Positions 2,389-10,835 of a stretch of 44,954 nt of DNA are shown here, piece after piece (the stretch's first letter is position 1; every line of letters starts with the position of its first letter). The stretch is from a phage. Made by a program: the position numbers and the translations under genes. The notes beneath the pieces are model-generated. The model did no database searches. It was not told where the DNA came from and saw only the letters and a program-made list of their open reading frames with translations. The stretch lies in the sequence record OZ503098.1; one strand, 5' to 3'.

Positions 2389-2943
2389 TTATTTAAGTGC
2401 GCTTTGTACCAGTGTTTTTTCCATGTTGCGGAAGTCTTCCGGCGTCATGAGGATTTTGGATCCGTCTTCGCCGGTGAGCACGACCAAAGGCTGGACGTCT
2501 TGACCCGCAATGCCGAAATCGCGGGCCTTAACAGTCTCGCCGAACGAGGCTACCGTGTCCTCTGCAACGCGAATGGCGCTGTTATACGCATTAATTTCAC
2601 CGTCGAGACGCACGGACAGGCCTTTTAGGCTGTCGAATTGTGCTGCCGTTGTATCGATCTGAATCTCGTCATGTACGGTCATGTAAGACTCGCCCAGCAG
2701 GGCGGCATACGCCACCAGGTCCACGATATTATCTTCCTGGTGCTTACGGTGCTGGCGAACCAGCTTCAGGCAGATCAGGAAGGTCCAGGCTTCTTGCTCG
2801 GTAAGGTCGCGACCGGTAAGCGCGTTAAACACGGCAGCGATTTGTTTAGCGCTGCGTTCTTCTTTCGCGTTGTCATAGCCATTTTCTTTCCCGCGCTGTT
2901 CCATAGTGGTAGCGGCGTTTTTGCAGTATTCGTATGCTTTCAT
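2389..2943 (-). CDS. Hypothetical protein (184 aa)
   Basis: Internal ATG at 2943 with AAGGAAAA RBS chosen over the longer ORF start at 3069, which would overlap the upstream gene; no recognisable catalytic motif. Confidence 0.5.
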   Translation of the reverse strand: MKAYEYCKNAATTMEQRGKENGYDNAKEERSAKQIAAVFNALTGRDLTEQEAWTFLICLKLVRQHRKHQEDNIVDLVAYAALLGESYMTVHDEIQIDTTAAQFDSLKGLSVRLDGEINAYNSAIRVAEDTVASFGETVKARDFGIAGQDVQPLVVLTGEDGSKILMTPEDFRNMEKTLVQSALK

Positions 2944-3005: not shown

Positions 3006-3476
3006 CTATTGGTTGCAAGTGAATTTTGCAACGTTTATCGCATAAATTTTCGGGACCAGATCGCCGCACGCCCGACGAATTGCCGCGATGTTCTTCGGAC
3101 AGTCTTCAATGATGACCAGTTCCGACACGTCCGCATAGCAGACCATTTTGAACACGGCGCACGCCTTAAACTCTGGTGGCGGGGTGTCGTCCAGCATGTG
3201 GCGCATAAACAACCGGCCTGCCGGGAAGACCTCCAATTGCTTGGCGGTGGTGTCCCAACATTCTAGCTGCCGGTTGGTCAGATACGCGATCTCGAAGCCT
3301 TGCTCTTTGTACATGCGCAACAGCGGCAGCATATCCATGTTCAGGTCTTCGCGTACATGCGCTTTGTGCCACTTTGCCCAAAAGGTTGATTTCGTTTTTA
3401 TCCCCGGCACCAGGTCGGCACGCGCATCGCTTGAACCGTTAATAACGCCATCCAAATCGCAAATAAGTAATTTCAT
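3006..3476 (-). CDS. HAD-superfamily phosphatase/nucleotidase-like protein
   Basis: N-terminus MKLLICDLDGVI contains the HAD motif I (DxDG[TV]); 156 aa. Confidence 0.55.
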   Translation of the reverse strand: MKLLICDLDGVINGSSDARADLVPGIKTKSTFWAKWHKAHVREDLNMDMLPLLRMYKEQGFEIAYLTNRQLECWDTTAKQLEVFPAGRLFMRHMLDDTPPPEFKACAVFKMVCYADVSELVIIEDCPKNIAAIRRACGDLVPKIYAINVAKFTCNQ

Positions 3477-3646
3477 TTTAATTCCGCCATTAAATTTTCA
3501 CGTACAATACGGGCCGAGAATGCGTCGCACACAAGATGGCAACTCGCCGTCATGACAAGCCAGTTAGGTCAAGGCCCAGCAATTGATGAGGTTGGCTTGC
3601 GCGCCTTACTTTATTTCCGGGGAAAACCTGGTAGCGTTTAATTATT

Positions 3647-4156
3647 TCATCCACGACGCGGGGACTTCGATCGACGACTAAGATATTCATTTAATTCACC
3701 TTCGCTCATTATTTCAATTTGTGCGCTGCCGAGGGGCGGCGCTTCGTCAAAGATTATCAATTGCTGGCACTTGTTATTGCTCGGACCGACTTCGCCGGTG
3801 ACGGCGTGAATGAATCGGATACGCCAGTCCAGAAGAATTATCAGGTTTGCGGTCTTCCGGGCCAACCTCGCCCACTTCGTCGACGTATCCTGATTCAGTA
3901 GCATGACGGTCCGGCGTCCGTGCGCTGCGCACTCGACCCACGGCAGCGGATCGGAATACGGCGGGTTGCACCACTTCCACCCTTTCAACTCGGACCAGTC
4001 CACCTCAAGCGCGCTATGTTCTGCCGTGAAGTAACGCGGTAGCAGATGATTGGCATCGCTTGCCGCCATATCGTAACGGAATCGGTATTTCCGACGAAGC
4101 GGTTTAAATAAAGCTGGCGGCGTGCGCCAGCTATCTTTCTGCTCACTCTTCGTCAT
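3647..4156 (-). CDS. DNA N6-adenine methyltransferase (phage Dam family)
   Basis: KDSWRTPPALF near the N-terminus and the catalytic NPPY motif (WCNPPYSDP), as in phage Dam-type methyltransferases. Start placed at the in-frame ATG at 4156 (MTKSEQKDSW), overlapping the upstream gene by 14 nt. Confidence 0.7.
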   Translation of the reverse strand: MTKSEQKDSWRTPPALFKPLRRKYRFRYDMAASDANHLLPRYFTAEHSALEVDWSELKGWKWCNPPYSDPLPWVECAAHGRRTVMLLNQDTSTKWARLARKTANLIILLDWRIRFIHAVTGEVGPSNNKCQQLIIFDEAPPLGSAQIEIMSEGELNEYLSRRSKSPRRG

Positions 4157-4601
4157 TCTGCGGGTCCAGTGCGTACAGGGCCGTTTTCTTGTCTCGGGTA
4201 AGTACGCGCTGGATCCGCGCCATCTCATCCTTGCCAAGAGGTCGGCTATCGGAATAGTAGCTGCCGTTCGCACGCCACGCTATCAGCACCAGGTCTTTCC
4301 TGTCGATCTTAGACTGGCGACCCTTCGGTCGCACGTACTCCTCGGCGCGTTTACAATGCTCGCGCAGACTTTCGGCAGTGATGCGGTTTAGCGCCACGCT
4401 GGTGGTGTATCCTGTGCGCTGCATAATCCCCATCAATTCGAAAAGCAGTTCGAAGCGCTCCTCTAACTCCATGCGGCGCTTTTCTTCCGTTTCATAGCTT
4501 GACAGGTAGGTATCTGCCAGCGCGTTCGCACGTTCGGCCTGTTCTCGGGCTTCGAGGCATTGCGCGGCCCAGTATGCTTTTTCTTCTTGTAAAATTTTCA
4601 T
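4143..4601 (-). CDS. Hypothetical protein (152 aa), helical/coiled-coil rich
   Basis: ORF with ATG 4601 and GGAG RBS; directly downstream of a promoter-like element and a leader hairpin. Confidence 0.5.
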   Translation of the reverse strand: MKILQEEKAYWAAQCLEAREQAERANALADTYLSSYETEEKRRMELEERFELLFELMGIMQRTGYTTSVALNRITAESLREHCKRAEEYVRPKGRQSKIDRKDLVLIAWRANGSYYSDSRPLGKDEMARIQRVLTRDKKTALYALDPQNDEE

Positions 4602-4648
4602 CGTGTTGTCTCCAGGTATTAAAAAGGGCGTCCAAACCGGACACCCTT

Positions 4649-4677
4649 AATATAATGCAACCAATCTAATTATGCAA
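4649..4677 (-). promoter_or_regulatory. Sigma70-like promoter built from two direct ATTGGTTGCAT copies (TTGCAT, 17 bp spacer, TATATT); a GC hairpin (4626-4646) lies in the leader
   Basis: Minus-strand reading: ATTGGTTGCATaattagATTGGTTGCATTATATT; the first copy supplies the -35 and the -10 follows the second copy after a 17-nt spacer. Confidence 0.35.
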
Positions 4678-5005
4678 CCAATTTACGAATAAAATTTGGG
4701 TCGCGTGCAACGTCTACCAGATACAGGTTACTAATGCGGTTGCCGTAGTGCCCTGGTGTGCGCTGGCGGCACACAACGGCGAAGCCGGGAGGGATTGTAT
4801 TGCCAGTCTCGATAATCCACGCTACGCGCGCGCCAGATAGCGTCTTGCCGTTGCACTCGATGCGCGTGCCGCCATCGGCAGTGTTGAGGTTGCCAATCTT
4901 ACATCCGGTGGACTTCAGGCGAATGACGCCGGTCTTGCTGTCGTAGGAGAATAACTGGTTAGTCATTGCAACCGAAAAATCAATGGCCTCGAATGTAGTA
5001 TTCAT
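4670..5005 (-). CDS. HNH-like endonuclease (degenerate) / hypothetical protein
   Basis: 111 aa; FSYDSKTG...NGKTLSGARVAWIIETG...GHYGNRISNLYLV follows the layout of small free-standing phage HNH proteins; catalytic residues are not all canonical. Start overlaps the stop of the upstream gene. Confidence 0.4.
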   Translation of the reverse strand: MNTTFEAIDFSVAMTNQLFSYDSKTGVIRLKSTGCKIGNLNTADGGTRIECNGKTLSGARVAWIIETGNTIPPGFAVVCRQRTPGHYGNRISNLYLVDVARDPNFIRKLVA

Positions 5006-5697
5006 TTTAAATTTTCCTCATTGACTGCTATCGCGAAGCCGCGCGGGGTGAGTGAGCGGATTAATTTTGTACGAGCGGATTTACCACCGAGGCGACTATA
5101 CTGCGTCGAGTACCCTTTTTCAACGAAAACAGGTTTCTTCTCTGGCATACGGAAGCCGTTGCCGGTCCACAAGCAGGTCAGCTTCGGATATGAATCGCGG
5201 GCGTTGATGTATTCCGGGAAGAGCGGGTGTACGTCATCCTCCGGCAGATAGCCCCCATACTCCCACGGGTCAAACGAGTGGTCTGGCTTGCGCCATTGGG
5301 TTGATAGCACGCTGCGCGGATTCTCAATCATATATGGCACTTCGAAGAAGTCCCCCAGGTAAGCGGCGATCTTCGCGGTACGCACCGCCTTAAGCTGAAA
5401 GGCTGGGTCTTTTGCCCGCTTGCGCGGGAACGCTTGCGCACCGCTCACCGCCAGATCAGTACACGGCGGGAATGCGTAGATGATATCCGGCGTACCGAAA
5501 TCACCATTCATCGCGCGGTCTACAAAGTCCAGATCAATAAACTCATTGCGATATCGGATCCCACGACCATAAATCCGGTAGTCCAGGTACGACCCGTGAT
5601 CAGCTTCGGAGTAGTTGAAGCAATAACACTTATGCCCCATCTCGGCAGCACGCTCAATCATCAAGCCGCTGCCGTCAAATAATGACCAGATAATCAT
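5002..5697 (-). CDS. Compact C5-cytosine methyltransferase-like protein (231 aa)
   Basis: Motif I-like LFDGSG (FxGxG), motif IV-like FPPC (Pro-Cys) followed by LAVSGA, motif VI-like ENP; unusually short and without an obvious target-recognition domain. Translationally coupled to the helicase (ATGA overlap at 5694-5697). Confidence 0.5.
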   Translation of the reverse strand: MIIWSLFDGSGLMIERAAEMGHKCYCFNYSEADHGSYLDYRIYGRGIRYRNEFIDLDFVDRAMNGDFGTPDIIYAFPPCTDLAVSGAQAFPRKRAKDPAFQLKAVRTAKIAAYLGDFFEVPYMIENPRSVLSTQWRKPDHSFDPWEYGGYLPEDDVHPLFPEYINARDSYPKLTCLWTGNGFRMPEKKPVFVEKGYSTQYSRLGGKSARTKLIRSLTPRGFAIAVNEENLK

Positions 5698-7118
5698 TTG
5701 CGCGCCTTTTTAGCTTTCATGTATTCCATCAAATCGTCCTGAATATCGCGCTTACTGTCGCGACGCTCGGCGACCAGTTCGTCAAGTGTTCCGCGTGCCT
5801 GGATAATATAGACGAATACAGGACGGGGGTGTCCGGCTTGCATCTGGCGAACCGGCCCGATACGCTCCACGATCTGCGAAAAGTGCTCAAAGTTCCAGGT
5901 GTCTGAGAAGATAGCAAGGTGGTGCCCACCGTCCTGCAGGTTGAGGCCGTGGCCCGCAGATGCCGGGTGCGCAAACATGATGGGGATCTCGCCCCTGTTC
6001 CATGCTTCCATATCCTTATTTCCTTGCTTACCCTTACCCATCGCTACGCCGTGCGGGAATTTCTTCTTGAGACGCGCCAGGTCATGCTTGTACTGGTATG
6101 CGACGAGCAACGGTGCTCCGTTCAACTCCTCCACGATACTTTCCAGCGCGTCCAGTTTGGCGTCGTGGATTTTCACCCATTCGTCGGTGCGCTCGCCGTC
6201 TTCGTCGACTTTATACACGGCCCCGGAAGCAAGCTGAAGGCACTTAATAGTCTTCGACGCAGCGTTCGCCGCCTCCACTGTTCCGCTTTCCAGTTCCGCA
6301 AATAGCTCCGCTTCGAACTGGTCATAAATCTTGCGGGCTTTCTTCGGCAGGTCCACAACAACCGGCGTATATATTGGCTTGTCACATCCGAAATATTCAG
6401 CCGCATCAACGGTTAGCGACACGTCTGACAGGCGTTGTTGTATTTCTTTCTCGGAGTTTTTTAGCGGGGCGTGCTGCATAGTGAAGCTGCCAGGCTTAAC
6501 CGGCTTGCTAATAAACCAGCGGTCTGTGAATGCCTTATAACTACTGCCGAGGCGTTCGCCACCGTCTACAAACCACGTCTGCCCCCATAAGTCCTTCAGC
6601 CCGTTTGGTGCGGGTGTGCCGGTAAGGTTAATCCAGCGTTTGACGTGCTTATGCGCAATAGCCGCCAGCGCGCGGGCGCGCTTACTCCCCTGCTTGCTTC
6701 TATAGCCTTTCAGCTTAGTGGATTCATCGGCAACAACTACCGTAAAGGGCCACTCGTCGCCGCAATACTCGACAAGCCACTCAACCACATCATAGTTAAC
6801 GCAAACCACGTTAGCGTCGCTCTCGAGCGCCGCGATGCGGTCCTTCTCTGGCCCAGTGCCGTCTACTACCAGCAGGGCTGGGAAACGCCATTTCTCCTGC
6901 TCCGGTGGCCATGTACCGGACGCAACGCGAAGCGGGGCCAGCACCAGTACGCGGTCCTCCTGGCTGGACAGGATACCAGTCTGGAACATTTTATTCAGCG
7001 CCCACATAGTCGCGCCGGTTTTACCCGACCCCATTGTCGCCCATATATTGCATCGCTTATGTTTTAGGATGAACGCGGTTATCAACTTCTGATATTCGCG
7101 ACGTCGGAAACGTGCCAT
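5694..7118 (-). CDS. SF2 (SNF2/DEAD-like) DNA helicase
   Basis: Walker A GSGKTG, DEAD-like box VVADESTK, C-terminal helicase domain; start placed at ATG 7118 (MARFRRREYQ) with an upstream RBS-like GGCGGA. Confidence 0.7.
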   Translation of the reverse strand: MARFRRREYQKLITAFILKHKRCNIWATMGSGKTGATMWALNKMFQTGILSSQEDRVLVLAPLRVASGTWPPEQEKWRFPALLVVDGTGPEKDRIAALESDANVVCVNYDVVEWLVEYCGDEWPFTVVVADESTKLKGYRSKQGSKRARALAAIAHKHVKRWINLTGTPAPNGLKDLWGQTWFVDGGERLGSSYKAFTDRWFISKPVKPGSFTMQHAPLKNSEKEIQQRLSDVSLTVDAAEYFGCDKPIYTPVVVDLPKKARKIYDQFEAELFAELESGTVEAANAASKTIKCLQLASGAVYKVDEDGERTDEWVKIHDAKLDALESIVEELNGAPLLVAYQYKHDLARLKKKFPHGVAMGKGKQGNKDMEAWNRGEIPIMFAHPASAGHGLNLQDGGHHLAIFSDTWNFEHFSQIVERIGPVRQMQAGHPRPVFVYIIQARGTLDELVAERRDSKRDIQDDLMEYMKAKKARK

Positions 7119-7122
7119 ATCT

Positions 7123-7341
7123 TTATTCCGCCTTTTTCCAGACTTCGGTTTCACTGTTCCAGTTCCTTTTTGTGGCGTCGTAGTTGGTGGCGTGTCCGAT
7201 GTGGACACCGGTGGCCCGGAAGCGCTTAAACTTCTGCCAGCACACCGTCAACGGCAGCGGGGAATTAATGTCCGCGATAAACCATACGCGATCTCCTGGT
7301 TTACATTCGCCCAGCTTGGTGAGCCGGTAGCGTTCTTTCAT
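7123..7341 (-). CDS. Hypothetical small protein (72 aa)
   Basis: ORF with GGGAG RBS 8 nt upstream of ATG 7341. Confidence 0.35.
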   Translation of the reverse strand: MKERYRLTKLGECKPGDRVWFIADINSPLPLTVCWQKFKRFRATGVHIGHATNYDATKRNWNSETEVWKKAE

Positions 7342-7598: not shown

Positions 7599-7877
7599 CT
7601 ATGCGACCAATTCAGCAACCAATAAATCACAGTCGGCGATGTTGTCTATGACGCGAACGTCCGCACCGCGGCGGGCCATCCGCTCATGCTCGCGTACCTG
7701 GTGCGGCTTCGGTTTTCCGCCGGGGCGCTTCACTTCGACGAACACTATTTTGCCGTTGATGATGATAATCAGATCGGGCGCACCCGCGCGCCCCTCCCAG
7801 GCCATTTTGCGGCAGAATCCGCCTACCTCTTTCACCCGTCGCATCAGGTGACTTTGAATCTTGCCTTCTGGTGTCAT
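7599..7877 (-). CDS. VRR-NUC domain nuclease
   Basis: APDLIIIINGKIVFVEVKRPGGKPKPHQ matches the VRR-NUC PD-(D/E)xK core (D...E-V-K); ATG 7877 abuts the upstream stop. Confidence 0.6.
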   Translation of the reverse strand: MTPEGKIQSHLMRRVKEVGGFCRKMAWEGRAGAPDLIIIINGKIVFVEVKRPGGKPKPHQVREHERMARRGADVRVIDNIADCDLLVAELVA

Positions 7878-8476
7878 TGTCGGCTTCTCCTTACGGCAGC
7901 GATGGCGGGTCCGATAAACTTCCGCATTTCGTCCGGGGTAAACCGGTCGCCGCGGGCTATGTTGCACTCTACGCAGCACGGCACACAATTATCTTTAGTA
8001 TGTCCAACCGCATTGTTGAGTCTGTCCACTCCATTGTCGCCGGTGAATCCGCAATACGTACACGGCAGGGAAGTAAGGTGCAGAACGTCCTCGGTTGTTA
8101 GGTCGGTGCTTAACCCCTTCCTTTCGTCTGACTTGCGGTATTGAAAGAGTTTATAGTAGGCGCGGACCTCTGGTGTCCGGCGGTTGTACTCTCGGCGTGA
8201 CTTATTAGCGCACGACCGGCACTCTTTACGGATATGTGACTGGCTGGCCTTGTTTCCTGGGCGGAAGTTCTCCGGCGTAAGCGTCTTGCGCTCCCCACAC
8301 CGGCGACACGTTACGATCTCCCCAGTGTACTCTCGCCATACTTCGCGCGGCGGAGCGCCTCTTTCTTTGTCCCGTCTCTCTTTCTTATATGCCGCCATGC
8401 ATTTGGCGCACCACGACTGGCCCTTGTTGAAAGCGGACTCATCTTTATCCGTATTACAACGCCCACAATGTTTCAT
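7874..8476 (-). CDS. Cys-rich zinc-finger protein with HNH-like C-terminus
   Basis: Several CxxC pairs; C-terminal CTYCGF...VDRLNNAVGHTKDNCVPCCVECNIARG resembles an HNH/zinc-binding nuclease core. Start placed at ATG 8476 (MKHCGRCN) rather than 8584, which would overlap the polymerase gene. Confidence 0.45.
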   Translation of the reverse strand: MKHCGRCNTDKDESAFNKGQSWCAKCMAAYKKERRDKERGAPPREVWREYTGEIVTCRRCGERKTLTPENFRPGNKASQSHIRKECRSCANKSRREYNRRTPEVRAYYKLFQYRKSDERKGLSTDLTTEDVLHLTSLPCTYCGFTGDNGVDRLNNAVGHTKDNCVPCCVECNIARGDRFTPDEMRKFIGPAIAAVRRSRQ

Positions 8477-8543
8477 ATACACCCCCGAAAAAGAAAACGC
8501 CAGACAATAATGCCCGACGTTTCCGCTAAAAGCAACATTTCCG

Positions 8544-10835
8544 CTACTTGCGGTAGCGATACATGCAATCGCCTTCGGCGGCAAGAGGGAAGCCTTTCGC
8601 CCAAACAGGCAGGTCGCACATCAGCGCGCATAGCTCCTCGGTCGTGTAGTCGTCAGTATCCGGAACCTCGGTGATCAGTTCATCGTGTACGGACAGTACG
8701 ATCTCATACCCAGCAGCTTCAACGCCTGGCATGGACCATGCGAGAATATCGCGACACAGCGCCTGCACGATGTTTTCCGTCAGTTTGCCGCCGTAGGTAT
8801 ACTGGAAGCCCCACTGGCGCGTCGTCTGATTCTCGCCCTGGTATTTGATGCGGGTGCTGGTGCGCTTCTTGCCGGTGTCTTCGTCAATCTCGGTCGTGAC
8901 AGACAGCGCAATGCCTGGATAACTCATAATACGCCCCGACGGCAACTCAATTTTCAACCACCACCCTGCGGCGTTCGGGTCGTCGCGCTCCTCGTCGAAG
9001 GTTGGGTCATGCTTCGCCTTCGTGCGAACAATCTTAAGCGCTTTCCTGCCATCCGGGCGAACGTTCGCACCCGCCCAGTATGCTTTGCCAGGATTGCGGA
9101 TCGCGCAGAGCACCGCGTCTTCCAGTTCAGCCCAAAATGCTACCGTCTTAGGGTGAGCCTCGCGCCACATACGTTTGATCGCGTCACACGTCAACCACAC
9201 GTTTTTCGGCAGTATGTAAGTTGGGCGCTCGTCTTTCTTGCCAGGCTTCGGCGGGCGCTTGGCTTCGTTAATGCGGGCATACTCATAACCACGTTTCGCC
9301 GCGGCCCAAATATGATCGGGGAATGTGCCCTTCATGACGTCCGCCATCGCATACAGGTCGAGGCCCAGGTTTTTAGCAAACTGCAGGAACGCTGCAACAC
9401 CGCCACCATAGCCCAACCCCAATTCGCACGCCTTACCAATCTGGCGCAAGTCTTTGCAGTTGGCTTTGATGTATTCCGGGTCGAGGCCAAACATCTTACC
9501 GGCAGTTTCACAATAGATATCGCGACCCGCCCTGAACACCATTAGCGCGGTTTTCTCCCCCGCGATCCAGGCGAGGCCACGCCCTTCCACGTTGGAGAAG
9601 TCAGCTACGACAAACTTCTTACCCTTCGCCGGAATAATGCACCCGCGAACAGTCGAGGCCGTTAGCTTCGATATGTCATACGCCCAGTGCGCTGTCCCGC
9701 GTAACAGGGAGTTGATGCCGTTGGTAAGCATGTGCGACCGCACCCAAAACGCGACGTCGCTCTCGCCTTCACGGCGTTTAATCTTCCCTTCGTGGTCGTC
9801 GCTATACTCGCCGCGTGCCAGGTTTTGCGGCTGGAAGCCTTTGCCGGCCCAGCGTAGCGTGCGTTTTGCCCCGCCATACTGGAGACAACCACGGCGGCGA
9901 CCATCGGCAGACAGCCCATTTACGAGCGGATTGTACTTAGTAGATGCCGTTGATGACGCGCCGAGGCGCATCTCGATAAGCACTTTGCCCTCGTCGGGGA
10001 AGTCCGGGTCTTCCAGCAGTTCGTTAAGCGTGGATTTCTGCGCGTTGTGTATTGTGAACGCAGGCGCGAGGTCGCGCAGCGCTGGCAGGAAGTCATTGCC
10101 GGTCAGCTTACCGCCGAAGCGCTCCCATGCTTCTTCCTTCAATTCTTCCTTATGCGCCTGCACCGCTTTGATCGCGGCGTTAGCCAGGTCAACGTCCACA
10201 TAGAAGCCGCGGTCGTTAATCATCTGGTCAATAAGCAGGATTTCATCTTCCTTCGGCGTGTTGCCCCAGTCTGGTATGCGCCAGTAGACTTCACGCATAG
10301 CAACAATATCCAGCGCGGCGTAGCGCAGGAATTTAGCCCACTCCTCGGGGTGCGTCTCGCGCGTATAGCGACGGATTTTGTAGGTCTTAGGGGTTGGCTT
10401 ACAGAATCGTTTGATTAGCGCCTTGCCAGCCTTATCCTTCGCGTGTTCTGCGTCAACGCCCAACACCTGGCACTGCATATCGAGGCTACCTGGCAGCGCG
10501 TGTCGAAAGGCCATAATCATGGTATCTTCGATCTGGCCTACCGGCAGGTCAATGCCCCACTTCTCGCGAATAACCAGGCGGTCAAACAGGAGGCCGTTAG
10601 CCATCACGATTTTTGCTTTCTTGCGGGATACCCGGCGGAGCGCCTTGCGCAGTTCACGCGGCATTGTGGGGGACTCGGTGCAATCCCATGTCTGCACGCG
10701 GCCCTCGTCGATGGCGTATGTGCAAATCATAATCTCGGTAGTTGGGTGTTCCGCGTAGGCGTATGCGCCCACTTTCTTCAGATCCACCCCGCTAAATGTC
10801 TCGGTATCGAGGAAAAGGCGTTCGAAGTCTTTCAT
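8544..10835 (-). CDS. DNA polymerase I family (family A) with 3'-5' exonuclease domain
   Basis: 763 aa; exo motif FLDTETFSG near the N-terminus, motif B-like RQIGKACELGLGYGGG, motif C VHDE (SVHDELITEV). Confidence 0.85.
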   Translation of the reverse strand: MKDFERLFLDTETFSGVDLKKVGAYAYAEHPTTEIMICTYAIDEGRVQTWDCTESPTMPRELRKALRRVSRKKAKIVMANGLLFDRLVIREKWGIDLPVGQIEDTMIMAFRHALPGSLDMQCQVLGVDAEHAKDKAGKALIKRFCKPTPKTYKIRRYTRETHPEEWAKFLRYAALDIVAMREVYWRIPDWGNTPKEDEILLIDQMINDRGFYVDVDLANAAIKAVQAHKEELKEEAWERFGGKLTGNDFLPALRDLAPAFTIHNAQKSTLNELLEDPDFPDEGKVLIEMRLGASSTASTKYNPLVNGLSADGRRRGCLQYGGAKRTLRWAGKGFQPQNLARGEYSDDHEGKIKRREGESDVAFWVRSHMLTNGINSLLRGTAHWAYDISKLTASTVRGCIIPAKGKKFVVADFSNVEGRGLAWIAGEKTALMVFRAGRDIYCETAGKMFGLDPEYIKANCKDLRQIGKACELGLGYGGGVAAFLQFAKNLGLDLYAMADVMKGTFPDHIWAAAKRGYEYARINEAKRPPKPGKKDERPTYILPKNVWLTCDAIKRMWREAHPKTVAFWAELEDAVLCAIRNPGKAYWAGANVRPDGRKALKIVRTKAKHDPTFDEERDDPNAAGWWLKIELPSGRIMSYPGIALSVTTEIDEDTGKKRTSTRIKYQGENQTTRQWGFQYTYGGKLTENIVQALCRDILAWSMPGVEAAGYEIVLSVHDELITEVPDTDDYTTEELCALMCDLPVWAKGFPLAAEGDCMYRYRK

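Follow-up and report, generated by a model that had tools for sequence, protein, structure and literature searches.

Two predicted orphan DNA methyltransferases, a compact Dcm-like C5-cytosine enzyme and a Dam-type enzyme, in a Dhillonvirus gene block

Here, we describe two genes in a phage DNA sequence of 44,954 nucleotides (OZ503098.1; "the window" denotes this stretch at its full length) whose products we read as solitary, or orphan, DNA methyltransferases located within a Dhillonvirus gene block. One is a 231-amino-acid protein, probably an S-adenosylmethionine (SAM)-dependent DNA C5-cytosine methyltransferase of a compact phage family annotated as "Dcm-like"; the other is a 169-amino-acid Dam-type N6-adenine methyltransferase. 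We assign a probability of roughly 80% to this explanation as a whole. Family membership, fold, and motif conservation are established. The presence of two different methyltransferase types had been noticed in an original prediction made from the letters of the sequence, and it was borne out by profile searches, which placed the C5-like protein in PHROG 757 and the Dam-type protein in PF05869.

Family and catalytic motifs of the 231-amino-acid protein

The 231-amino-acid protein matched PHROG 757 ("DNA methyltransferase") over residues 1 to 229 with an E value of 1.3e-82, and by this full-length profile match and by its length it belongs to the compact Dcm-like family. A word-based search returned 2884 relatives, and tblastn detected the gene family in 1512 phage records (Escherichia, 576; Klebsiella, 521; Salmonella, 107; and others), the carriers including Drexlerviridae, rV5-like myoviruses, and Klebsiella siphoviruses. 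When 1.84 billion cluster representatives were searched with a profile, 1942 clusters at 50% identity were retrieved (E ≤ 0.001). Since nearly all of the 150 clusters listed out of these 1942 are 210 to 260 amino acids long, a length of 231 amino acids represents the family norm and no truncation. Among 185 sampled relatives possessing both the PPC and the ENP/ENV motif, the median length was 233 amino acids.

Conservation was assessed in two sets, 30 relatives at 58 to 84% identity and 71 relatives at 31 to 55% identity. Motif I reads LFDGSG (residues 6 to 11), with F7, G9, S10, and G11 invariant in the closer set, and the stretch lines up with motif I of M.HaeIII. Motif IV reads FPPC79T, with P77, P78, C79, and T80 invariant, and in alignments C79 falls on the PC of HaeIII and Dcm. 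Motif VI is represented by E125-N126-P127, all three invariant, which hhalign placed, with weak statistics, on the ENV of E. coli Dcm. In the set of 71 more distant relatives, C79, E125, and P127 were still invariant. The FxGxG, Pro-Cys, and ENP-type motifs pointed out in the original prediction are present in the right order and invariant in the 30 relatives, hence not a chance occurrence.

Similarity to described C5-methyltransferases was low in the other searches. The 231-amino-acid protein stayed below the gathering threshold of PF00145, with no match at all at E ≤ 1; 20 of the 30 close relatives reached this profile at E ≤ 1 (best E = 1.3e-6), and three of the 30 passed its 22-bit cutoff, always over motifs I to IV only. 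A phmmer search against the sequences of solved structures returned nothing useful. Family profiles built from the 30 and the 71 sequences gave only a marginal match to M.HaeIII, restricted to motifs I to IV (E of about 0.9 to 1), and hhalign of these profiles against E. coli Dcm and a 330-amino-acid methyltransferase of Edwardsiella phage eiAU-183 produced only weak partial alignments.

Orthologs in other Dhillonviruses (SECphi18 gp55, JLBYU60 gp35, and the copies in GeorgBuechner and Oekolampad) share 97 to 99% protein identity with the 231-amino-acid protein and occupy the same slot between a SNF2 helicase gene and an HNH-like gene; nothing of substance differs between them. The copies in GeorgBuechner and Oekolampad are annotated as "Dcm-like C5 cytosine methyltransferase."

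A laboratory-tested relative in phage K42

Over its full length, the window protein is 54% identical (E = 2e-87) to gp55 of KarlJaspers (Bas06), the product of a 711-bp gene annotated as "Dcm-like C5 cytosine methyltransferase." KarlJaspers is one of the BASEL phages, and the genome of phage K42 is 95.4% identical to it (10.1101/2023.08.16.553469). In four of four K42 mutants escaping the retron Ec86, the 711-bp dcm gene was lost or disrupted, and dcm expressed by itself was toxic to cells only if they carried Ec86 (10.1101/2023.08.16.553469). Liquid chromatography coupled with mass spectrometry (LC-MS) showed that wild-type K42 Dcm, expressed alone in E. coli, raised C5-cytosine methylation of the multicopy single-stranded DNA (msDNA), and no such rise in 5-methylcytosine (5mC) was seen with a C82A/E128A/K175A/K176A mutant; moreover, altering CCTGG in the msDNA stem abolished defense by Ec86 (10.1101/2023.08.16.553469). 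This preprint has since been published, and later papers cite the published version.

K42 Dcm and the window protein belong to the same compact family and share its architecture, with 236 and 231 amino acids, respectively. Residues C82, E128, K175, and K176 of K42 Dcm align with C79, E125, K172, and L173 of the window protein. Of the mutated residues, the catalytic Cys, the catalytic Glu, and the first Lys are therefore kept, whereas the second Lys is replaced by Leu; both lysines lie at the motif VIII-like strand of K42 Dcm and are among the four residues changed together in the inactive mutant. The two proteins also differ in an 18-residue loop, which is of an "NPGW" type in K42 and KarlJaspers and of a "YSxQ" type in the window, and in their host phages, which are Drexlerviridae and a Dhillonvirus, respectively.

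The original prediction had left open whether the small protein is a minimal enzyme, depends on a partner, or catalyzes a different pyrimidine C5 reaction. Because K42 Dcm raised 5mC in msDNA when expressed alone in E. coli, the first of these options is favored over the second. With respect to the third option, neither a fold nor a profile match of the thymidylate synthase/dCMP hydroxymethylase type was found for the 231-amino-acid protein.

Fold and target recognition

The 231-amino-acid protein has the catalytic fold of C5-methyltransferases, and its best structural matches were the catalytic domains of DNMT3A and DNMT3B, at 13 to 16% identity. DNMT3 proteins differ in being eukaryotic and in keeping motif X, and they work as dimers or tetramers with regulatory domains. 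Compared with M.HhaI, M.HaeIII, and E. coli Dcm (all PF00145), the window protein is about 100 to 240 residues shorter; it lacks a separate target-recognition domain as well as QxRxR, and a motif X is not detectable in it. To E. coli Dcm, there was no significant sequence match (hhalign E = 0.16 to 0.3).

In line with the original prediction, we found no target-recognition domain set apart between motifs VIII and IX: only about 30 residues, including a short variable loop, connect the motif VIII-like strand to R214-SLTPRG, which resembles motif IX. The protein ends 11 residues after this motif, its last helix comprising residues 219 to 229. The loop, at about residues 186 to 203, varies more than any other part of the protein, with 18 residues in close and 9 to 30 residues in distant relatives. 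Loops of the YSxQ type were present in 97 and loops of the NPGW type in 18 of the 185 sampled relatives. We infer that the variable loop, perhaps together with a conserved insert at residues 137 to 167, acts as the recognition element.

If so, the difference between this loop and that of the K42 type means that CCWGG cannot be assumed to be the target of the Dhillonvirus enzyme. An assignment to the E. coli Dcm/M.EcoRII type was also considered and rejected, as no significant similarity to K-12 Dcm (472 amino acids) was detected beyond motifs IV to VI; the term "Dcm-like" is to be taken as an annotation and not as evidence for CCWGG. In the literature, no mapped methylome, recognition sequence, or solved structure was found for the compact family. 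It is tempting to speculate, although we consider it rather unlikely, that the compact family reads DNA in a way undescribed for prokaryotic C5-methyltransferases, for example as a DNMT3-like dimer or by a single specificity-swapping loop. Were this true, the recognition sequence of the Dhillonvirus enzyme would be other than CCWGG and would decide which restriction systems and retrons it meets.

Proposed mode of action and alternatives

In the mechanism that we propose, the two orphan methyltransferases would act after DNA synthesis. Cys79 of the compact enzyme would attack C6 of a flipped-out cytosine, Glu125 would protonate N3, and the methyl group would be transferred to C5. Recognition would proceed via the short loop at about residues 186 to 203 and the conserved 137-167 insert, replacing a separate target-recognition domain in a manner that recalls DNMT3. 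Both enzymes together would mark the phage DNA with 5mC and N6-methyladenine (6mA), and these marks would block restriction enzymes whose sites are covered. Methylation would at the same time be a liability, considering that the retron Ec86/Eco1 senses this kind of methyltransferase. Neither a HAD-superfamily phosphatase nor an HNH-like protein, both encoded in the same region, would be required for methylation.

Several observations weigh against this explanation. Even at E ≤ 1, the 231-amino-acid protein had no match in Pfam or NCBIfam. The canonical motif VIII (QxRxR) is not detectable, the equivalent strand reading D168-x-Y170-P-K172-x-T174-C-L-W177, and neither is motif X (GNxV) at the sequence level; in 93% of the sampled relatives, the C terminus comes no more than 25 residues after the RSLTPRG-type motif (median, 11). 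Formation of 5mC and triggering of the retron are attributed to the window enzyme by analogy, from literature on a relative with 54% identity, and the CCWGG specificity of that relative was itself inferred from msDNA mutants and not mapped (10.1101/2023.08.16.553469). With an NPGW loop in the studied member and a YSxQ loop in the window protein, the specificities may differ. Of the 12 phages in one panel, among them the Dhillonviruses SECphi18 and SECphi4, Ec86 gave protection against a single one. The methyltransferase copies of these two phages are 98% and 97% identical, respectively, to that in the window, and since a single phage of the panel was blocked, at least one Dhillonvirus with a 97 to 98% identical gene was not. 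Finally, Dhillonvirus phages were comparatively sensitive to the restriction panel of the BASEL study.

In the copy of SECphi4 (L009:509-1204), two positions that are otherwise invariant or nearly so are changed (R219C and D55G), and the enzyme may be impaired in that laboratory phage. The R219C substitution, at an invariant position, may account for the case of SECphi4, which weakens the argument drawn from the panel.

Of the alternatives to a self-sufficient DNA methyltransferase, the one that survives best, albeit with poor odds, holds that the 231-amino-acid protein is the catalytic subunit only and is targeted by a partner, either the HNH-like protein or a second copy in a DNMT3-type dimer. 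Such an arrangement could account for the missing target-recognition domain and would match the behavior of DNMT3A and DNMT3B, which recognize DNA as oligomers. It would also agree with the HNH-like gene overlapping the methyltransferase stop codon and being fixed across the genus, as well as with the position of its homolog in eiAU-183, again beside a C5-methyltransferase gene. However, K42 Dcm alone both methylated msDNA and triggered Ec86, and hence this enzyme needs no partner other than, possibly, a second copy of itself. Downstream of dcm, KarlJaspers has a gene without any relation to the HNH-like protein, for which reason we rejected the latter as a general methyltransferase partner, and the HNH-like protein was found in 162 records from Dhillonvirus and Eiauvirus versus 1512 records for the methyltransferase family.

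Alternatively, the compact enzyme might transfer to cytosine C5 some group that is not methyl, such as carboxymethyl from carboxy-SAM (Cx-SAM; E. coli CmoA), and thereby start a hypermodification pathway with the HAD protein, a DUF6378 protein, and proteins without assigned function. We regard this as very improbable. K42 Dcm gave 5mC in LC-MS, and the hallmarks of CmoX, namely, an SPPC motif, Arg350 binding the carboxyl group, and usually a neighboring phage cmoA or ligase gene, were not recovered: the window motif is FPPC, the Arg350 region has no detectable counterpart in the 231-amino-acid protein, and there was no CmoA or ligase among the neighbors scanned. The protein consequently does not have the features of a CmoX-type cytosine C5-carboxymethyltransferase, and the HAD protein resembles a polynucleotide 3'-phosphatase. 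Just as slim is the chance that the 231-amino-acid protein does not methylate DNA here, being a DNMT2-like tRNA/RNA m5C methyltransferase or a catalytically dead binder, considering that the invariance of the catalytic Cys, the Glu, and the SAM-binding motif in distant relatives argues for a live enzyme, that the K42 homolog methylates DNA, and that the DNA methyltransferases DNMT3B, CmoX, 3g7u, and M.HhaI all scored higher than DNMT2.

The Dam-type methyltransferase and the question of restriction

The second methyltransferase is clearly, judging from its sequence, a phage Dam-type N6-adenine DNA methyltransferase, as had been predicted. Its open reading frame (ORF) spans positions 3647 to 4273, and the ATG at 4156 is the likely start codon, favored because the resulting 169 amino acids equal the length annotated in JLBYU60. 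The protein matched PF05869 over positions 4 to 146 of 169 with 122.4 bits, far above the cutoff of 28.1 (E = 2e-35), and PHROG 111 with an E value of 8e-56. It shares with the phage Dam family PF05869 both the profile and the (N/D)PPY motif, present as NPPY in WCNPPYS; in contrast, it missed the equivalog cutoff of NCBIfam TIGR01712, with 85.9 bits versus 97.05. The protein is 30% identical to the Dam-like protein of KarlJaspers. That it targets GATC is an assumption made solely from the analogy to phage T1 Dam.

Orphan methyltransferases of phages can shield DNA from host restriction, which makes an anti-restriction purpose of both enzymes plausible. Counts of GATC (155) and CCWGG (142) in the window were near expectation, as was that of GATATC. 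GAATTC (2 versus 8 to 9 expected) and GGTACC (1 versus 6.6 to 12.8 expected) were strongly depleted. Although such site frequencies are weakly informative, the undepleted GATC and CCWGG are weakly consistent with protection by methylation at those two sites, and the depletion of GAATTC and GGTACC suggests site avoidance against some restriction enzymes. For Drexlerviridae, the BASEL study reported no simple link of methyltransferase genes with restriction resistance.

Relevance of the compact family

Both methyltransferase genes are already known: they are annotated in many Dhillonvirus genomes at 97 to 99% identity, and the compact family has a laboratory-tested member. The questions of the recognition sequence and of how so small an enzyme reads DNA concern the compact family in general and not this window. 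Members of the family rank with the shortest C5-methyltransferase-like proteins for which activity has been reported, occur very commonly among E. coli, Klebsiella, and Salmonella phages, and account for a large share of the cytosine methyltransferases in enterobacterial phages. They may serve as a restriction shield and at the same time provide the signal that sets off the retron Ec86/Eco1. A structure and a recognition sequence for the family would help to predict phage host range with respect to restriction and retron defenses, and the family could yield a very small programmable cytosine methyltransferase.

Source genome and gene layout

A 6.9-kb stretch around the methyltransferase genes matched 164 phage records, 138 of which cover at least 80% of it at 80 to 95% DNA identity. 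Nearly all of these records come from Dhillonvirus phages that infect Escherichia or Shigella, e.g., Envy, SO-1, SECphi18, and JLBYU60, and the 138 Dhillonvirus records have the same gene order and a DNA identity to the stretch of about 90%. Judging from these matches and from the gene order shared with annotated relatives, the window is essentially a whole Dhillonvirus genome (HK578-like E. coli siphovirus). In annotated relatives, genes for DNA polymerase, endonucleases, SNF2 helicase, cytosine methyltransferase, HNH endonuclease, a hypothetical protein, Dam, a HAD-like protein, a DUF6378 protein, and a further hypothetical protein follow each other, and after this series come tail fiber genes on the opposite strand. 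The two methyltransferase genes are hence situated in the downstream end of the Dhillonvirus replication and nucleotide-metabolism gene block (Table 1).

Table 1. Genes in and around the methyltransferase region of the window
Feature	Position	Strand	Evidence and remarks
SNF2-family helicase	5694..7208	-	PF00176, E = 7e-11; PHROG 62, E = 7e-157; upstream gene, same transcription unit as the C5-methyltransferase
Compact Dcm-like C5-cytosine methyltransferase (predicted), 231 aa	5002..5697	-	PHROG 757, E = 1.3e-82
HNH-like protein, 111 aa, degenerate motif	4670..5005	-	PHROG 99, E = 2.2e-16
152-aa protein without assigned function	4143..4601	-	PHROG 10530, E = 1.6e-88
Dam-type N6-adenine methyltransferase (predicted), 169 aa	3647..4156	-	PF05869, E = 2e-35; PHROG 111, E = 8e-56
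Stand-alone HAD-superfamily phosphatase, 156 aa	3006..3476	-	PHROG 415, E = 1e-35
DUF6378 protein, 184 aa from ATG at 2943	2389..2943	-	PF19905, E = 9.5e-10; adjoins the HAD gene

All four ORFs originally proposed for positions 3006 to 5697, encoding the two methyltransferases, the HAD phosphatase, and the HNH-like protein, were found at their predicted positions, all on the minus strand; the gene for the 152-amino-acid protein, a fifth one lying between the HNH-like gene and the Dam gene, had been missed. ATGA start/stop overlaps couple the helicase gene to the C5-methyltransferase gene and the latter to the HNH-like gene. Between the HNH-like gene and the gene for the 152-amino-acid protein, at about 4620 to 4650 on the minus strand, there is a hairpin followed by a T run (AAGGGTGTCCGGTTTGGACGCCCTTTTT), which was not among the terminators listed by an automatic terminator scan. 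This element may split a helicase/C5-methyltransferase/HNH unit from a 152-amino-acid protein/Dam/HAD unit.

The original prediction interpreted the region as a DNA-modification island. We rejected a coordinated island, since the homologs of its genes are scattered in KarlJaspers (Dam at 33.0 kb, Dcm-like at 40.1 kb, and HAD at 46.0 kb) and since the hairpin and T run may also separate two units in the window. Considering the dispersal in KarlJaspers, the adjacency in Dhillonvirus reflects the layout of an early/middle gene block and no conserved module.

Neighboring genes

The HNH-like protein matched part of the PHROG 99 profile, and its match to Pfam HNH_3 was weak (E = 0.085; 12.9 bits versus a cutoff of 24.8). 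Its motif is shortened to GH86-Y-G-N89-R-I-S-N93-L. Among 162 matching phage records, all from Dhillonvirus and Eiauvirus, the gene was present at 92 to 99% identity in about 150. With this fixed and not sporadic distribution, it is a core gene of Dhillonvirus, unlike a mobile homing endonuclease. In the Edwardsiella phage eiAU-183, a homolog (L008:3860-4315), which has a weak NUMOD-like match, is located between a SNF2 helicase gene and a gene for a full-length, 330-amino-acid PF00145 methyltransferase, followed by a PF05869 Dam gene; by sequence comparison, the functional set recurs there with a different cytosine methyltransferase. The fixation of the gene, together with the eiAU-183 homolog beside a C5-methyltransferase and Dam, points to a function linked with this gene block instead of homing. 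The protein is probably best described as a conserved nuclease-fold protein.

For the 152-amino-acid protein, there was no match in Pfam or NCBIfam. PHROG 10530 carries the label "DNA ligase," which looks like an annotation artifact, given that no ligase or other domain was matched and that 152 amino acids are too few for a ligase.

In the stand-alone HAD protein, the motifs D7-x-D9, T67/R69, K104, and D125 are all invariant in homologs. A Foldseek search with its AlphaFold model (pLDDT, 84.5) gave as best matches bacterial Pnkp1 (4xrp), 4xru, and the isolated phosphatase domain of T4 Pnkp (5uj0; TM scores, 0.69/0.75), and the match to PHROG 415, labeled "polynucleotide kinase," agrees with this outcome. 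The Pfam profile Acid_phosphat_B (PF03767) scored 22.2 bits, under its cutoff of 27. All HAD catalytic motifs of the 3'-phosphatase domain of T4 Pnkp and bacterial Pnkp1 are kept, but the window protein is without a kinase domain, and its sequence similarity to these proteins is very low (17 to 21%). According to the model, it is most likely a polynucleotide 3'-phosphatase acting in nucleic-acid end healing, or a nucleotidase; neither a ligase nor a Hen1 partner was found for it. The earlier idea that this phosphatase acts on modified-nucleotide intermediates was not upheld, with Pnkp 3'-phosphatase domains as the best fold matches and nothing linking the protein to modified nucleotides.

In SECphi18, a 75-amino-acid ORF, mislabeled "acid phosphatase," is annotated between the HAD and Dam genes. 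In the window, only a 46-amino-acid ORF overlapping the end of the Dam gene is open there (3477-3646/3550-3690, minus strand). The small gene of the SECphi18 type may be disrupted in the window, or it may not be real.

The DUF6378 domain (PF19905) covers only residues 16 to 85 of the 184-amino-acid protein encoded next to the HAD gene, which is labeled "Nucleotide modification associated protein" in SECphi18. For this protein, we found neither a structurally solved relative nor usable literature.

Further genes on the minus strand surround the region. Upstream of the helicase gene, positions 7599 to 7988 and 7874 to 8584 encode a VRR-NUC nuclease and a 236-amino-acid protein of the endonuclease VII/HNH type, respectively. 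On the other side, positions 1771 to 2346 encode a 191-amino-acid protein (PHROG 10558, no Pfam match), a hypothetical protein conserved in SECphi18 and JLBYU60, which contains the sequence IDAVWTYEVK, resembling a PD-(D/E)xK nuclease motif. Counting the HNH-like gene and this possible PD-(D/E)xK protein, up to four nuclease-fold genes are present within 7 kb.

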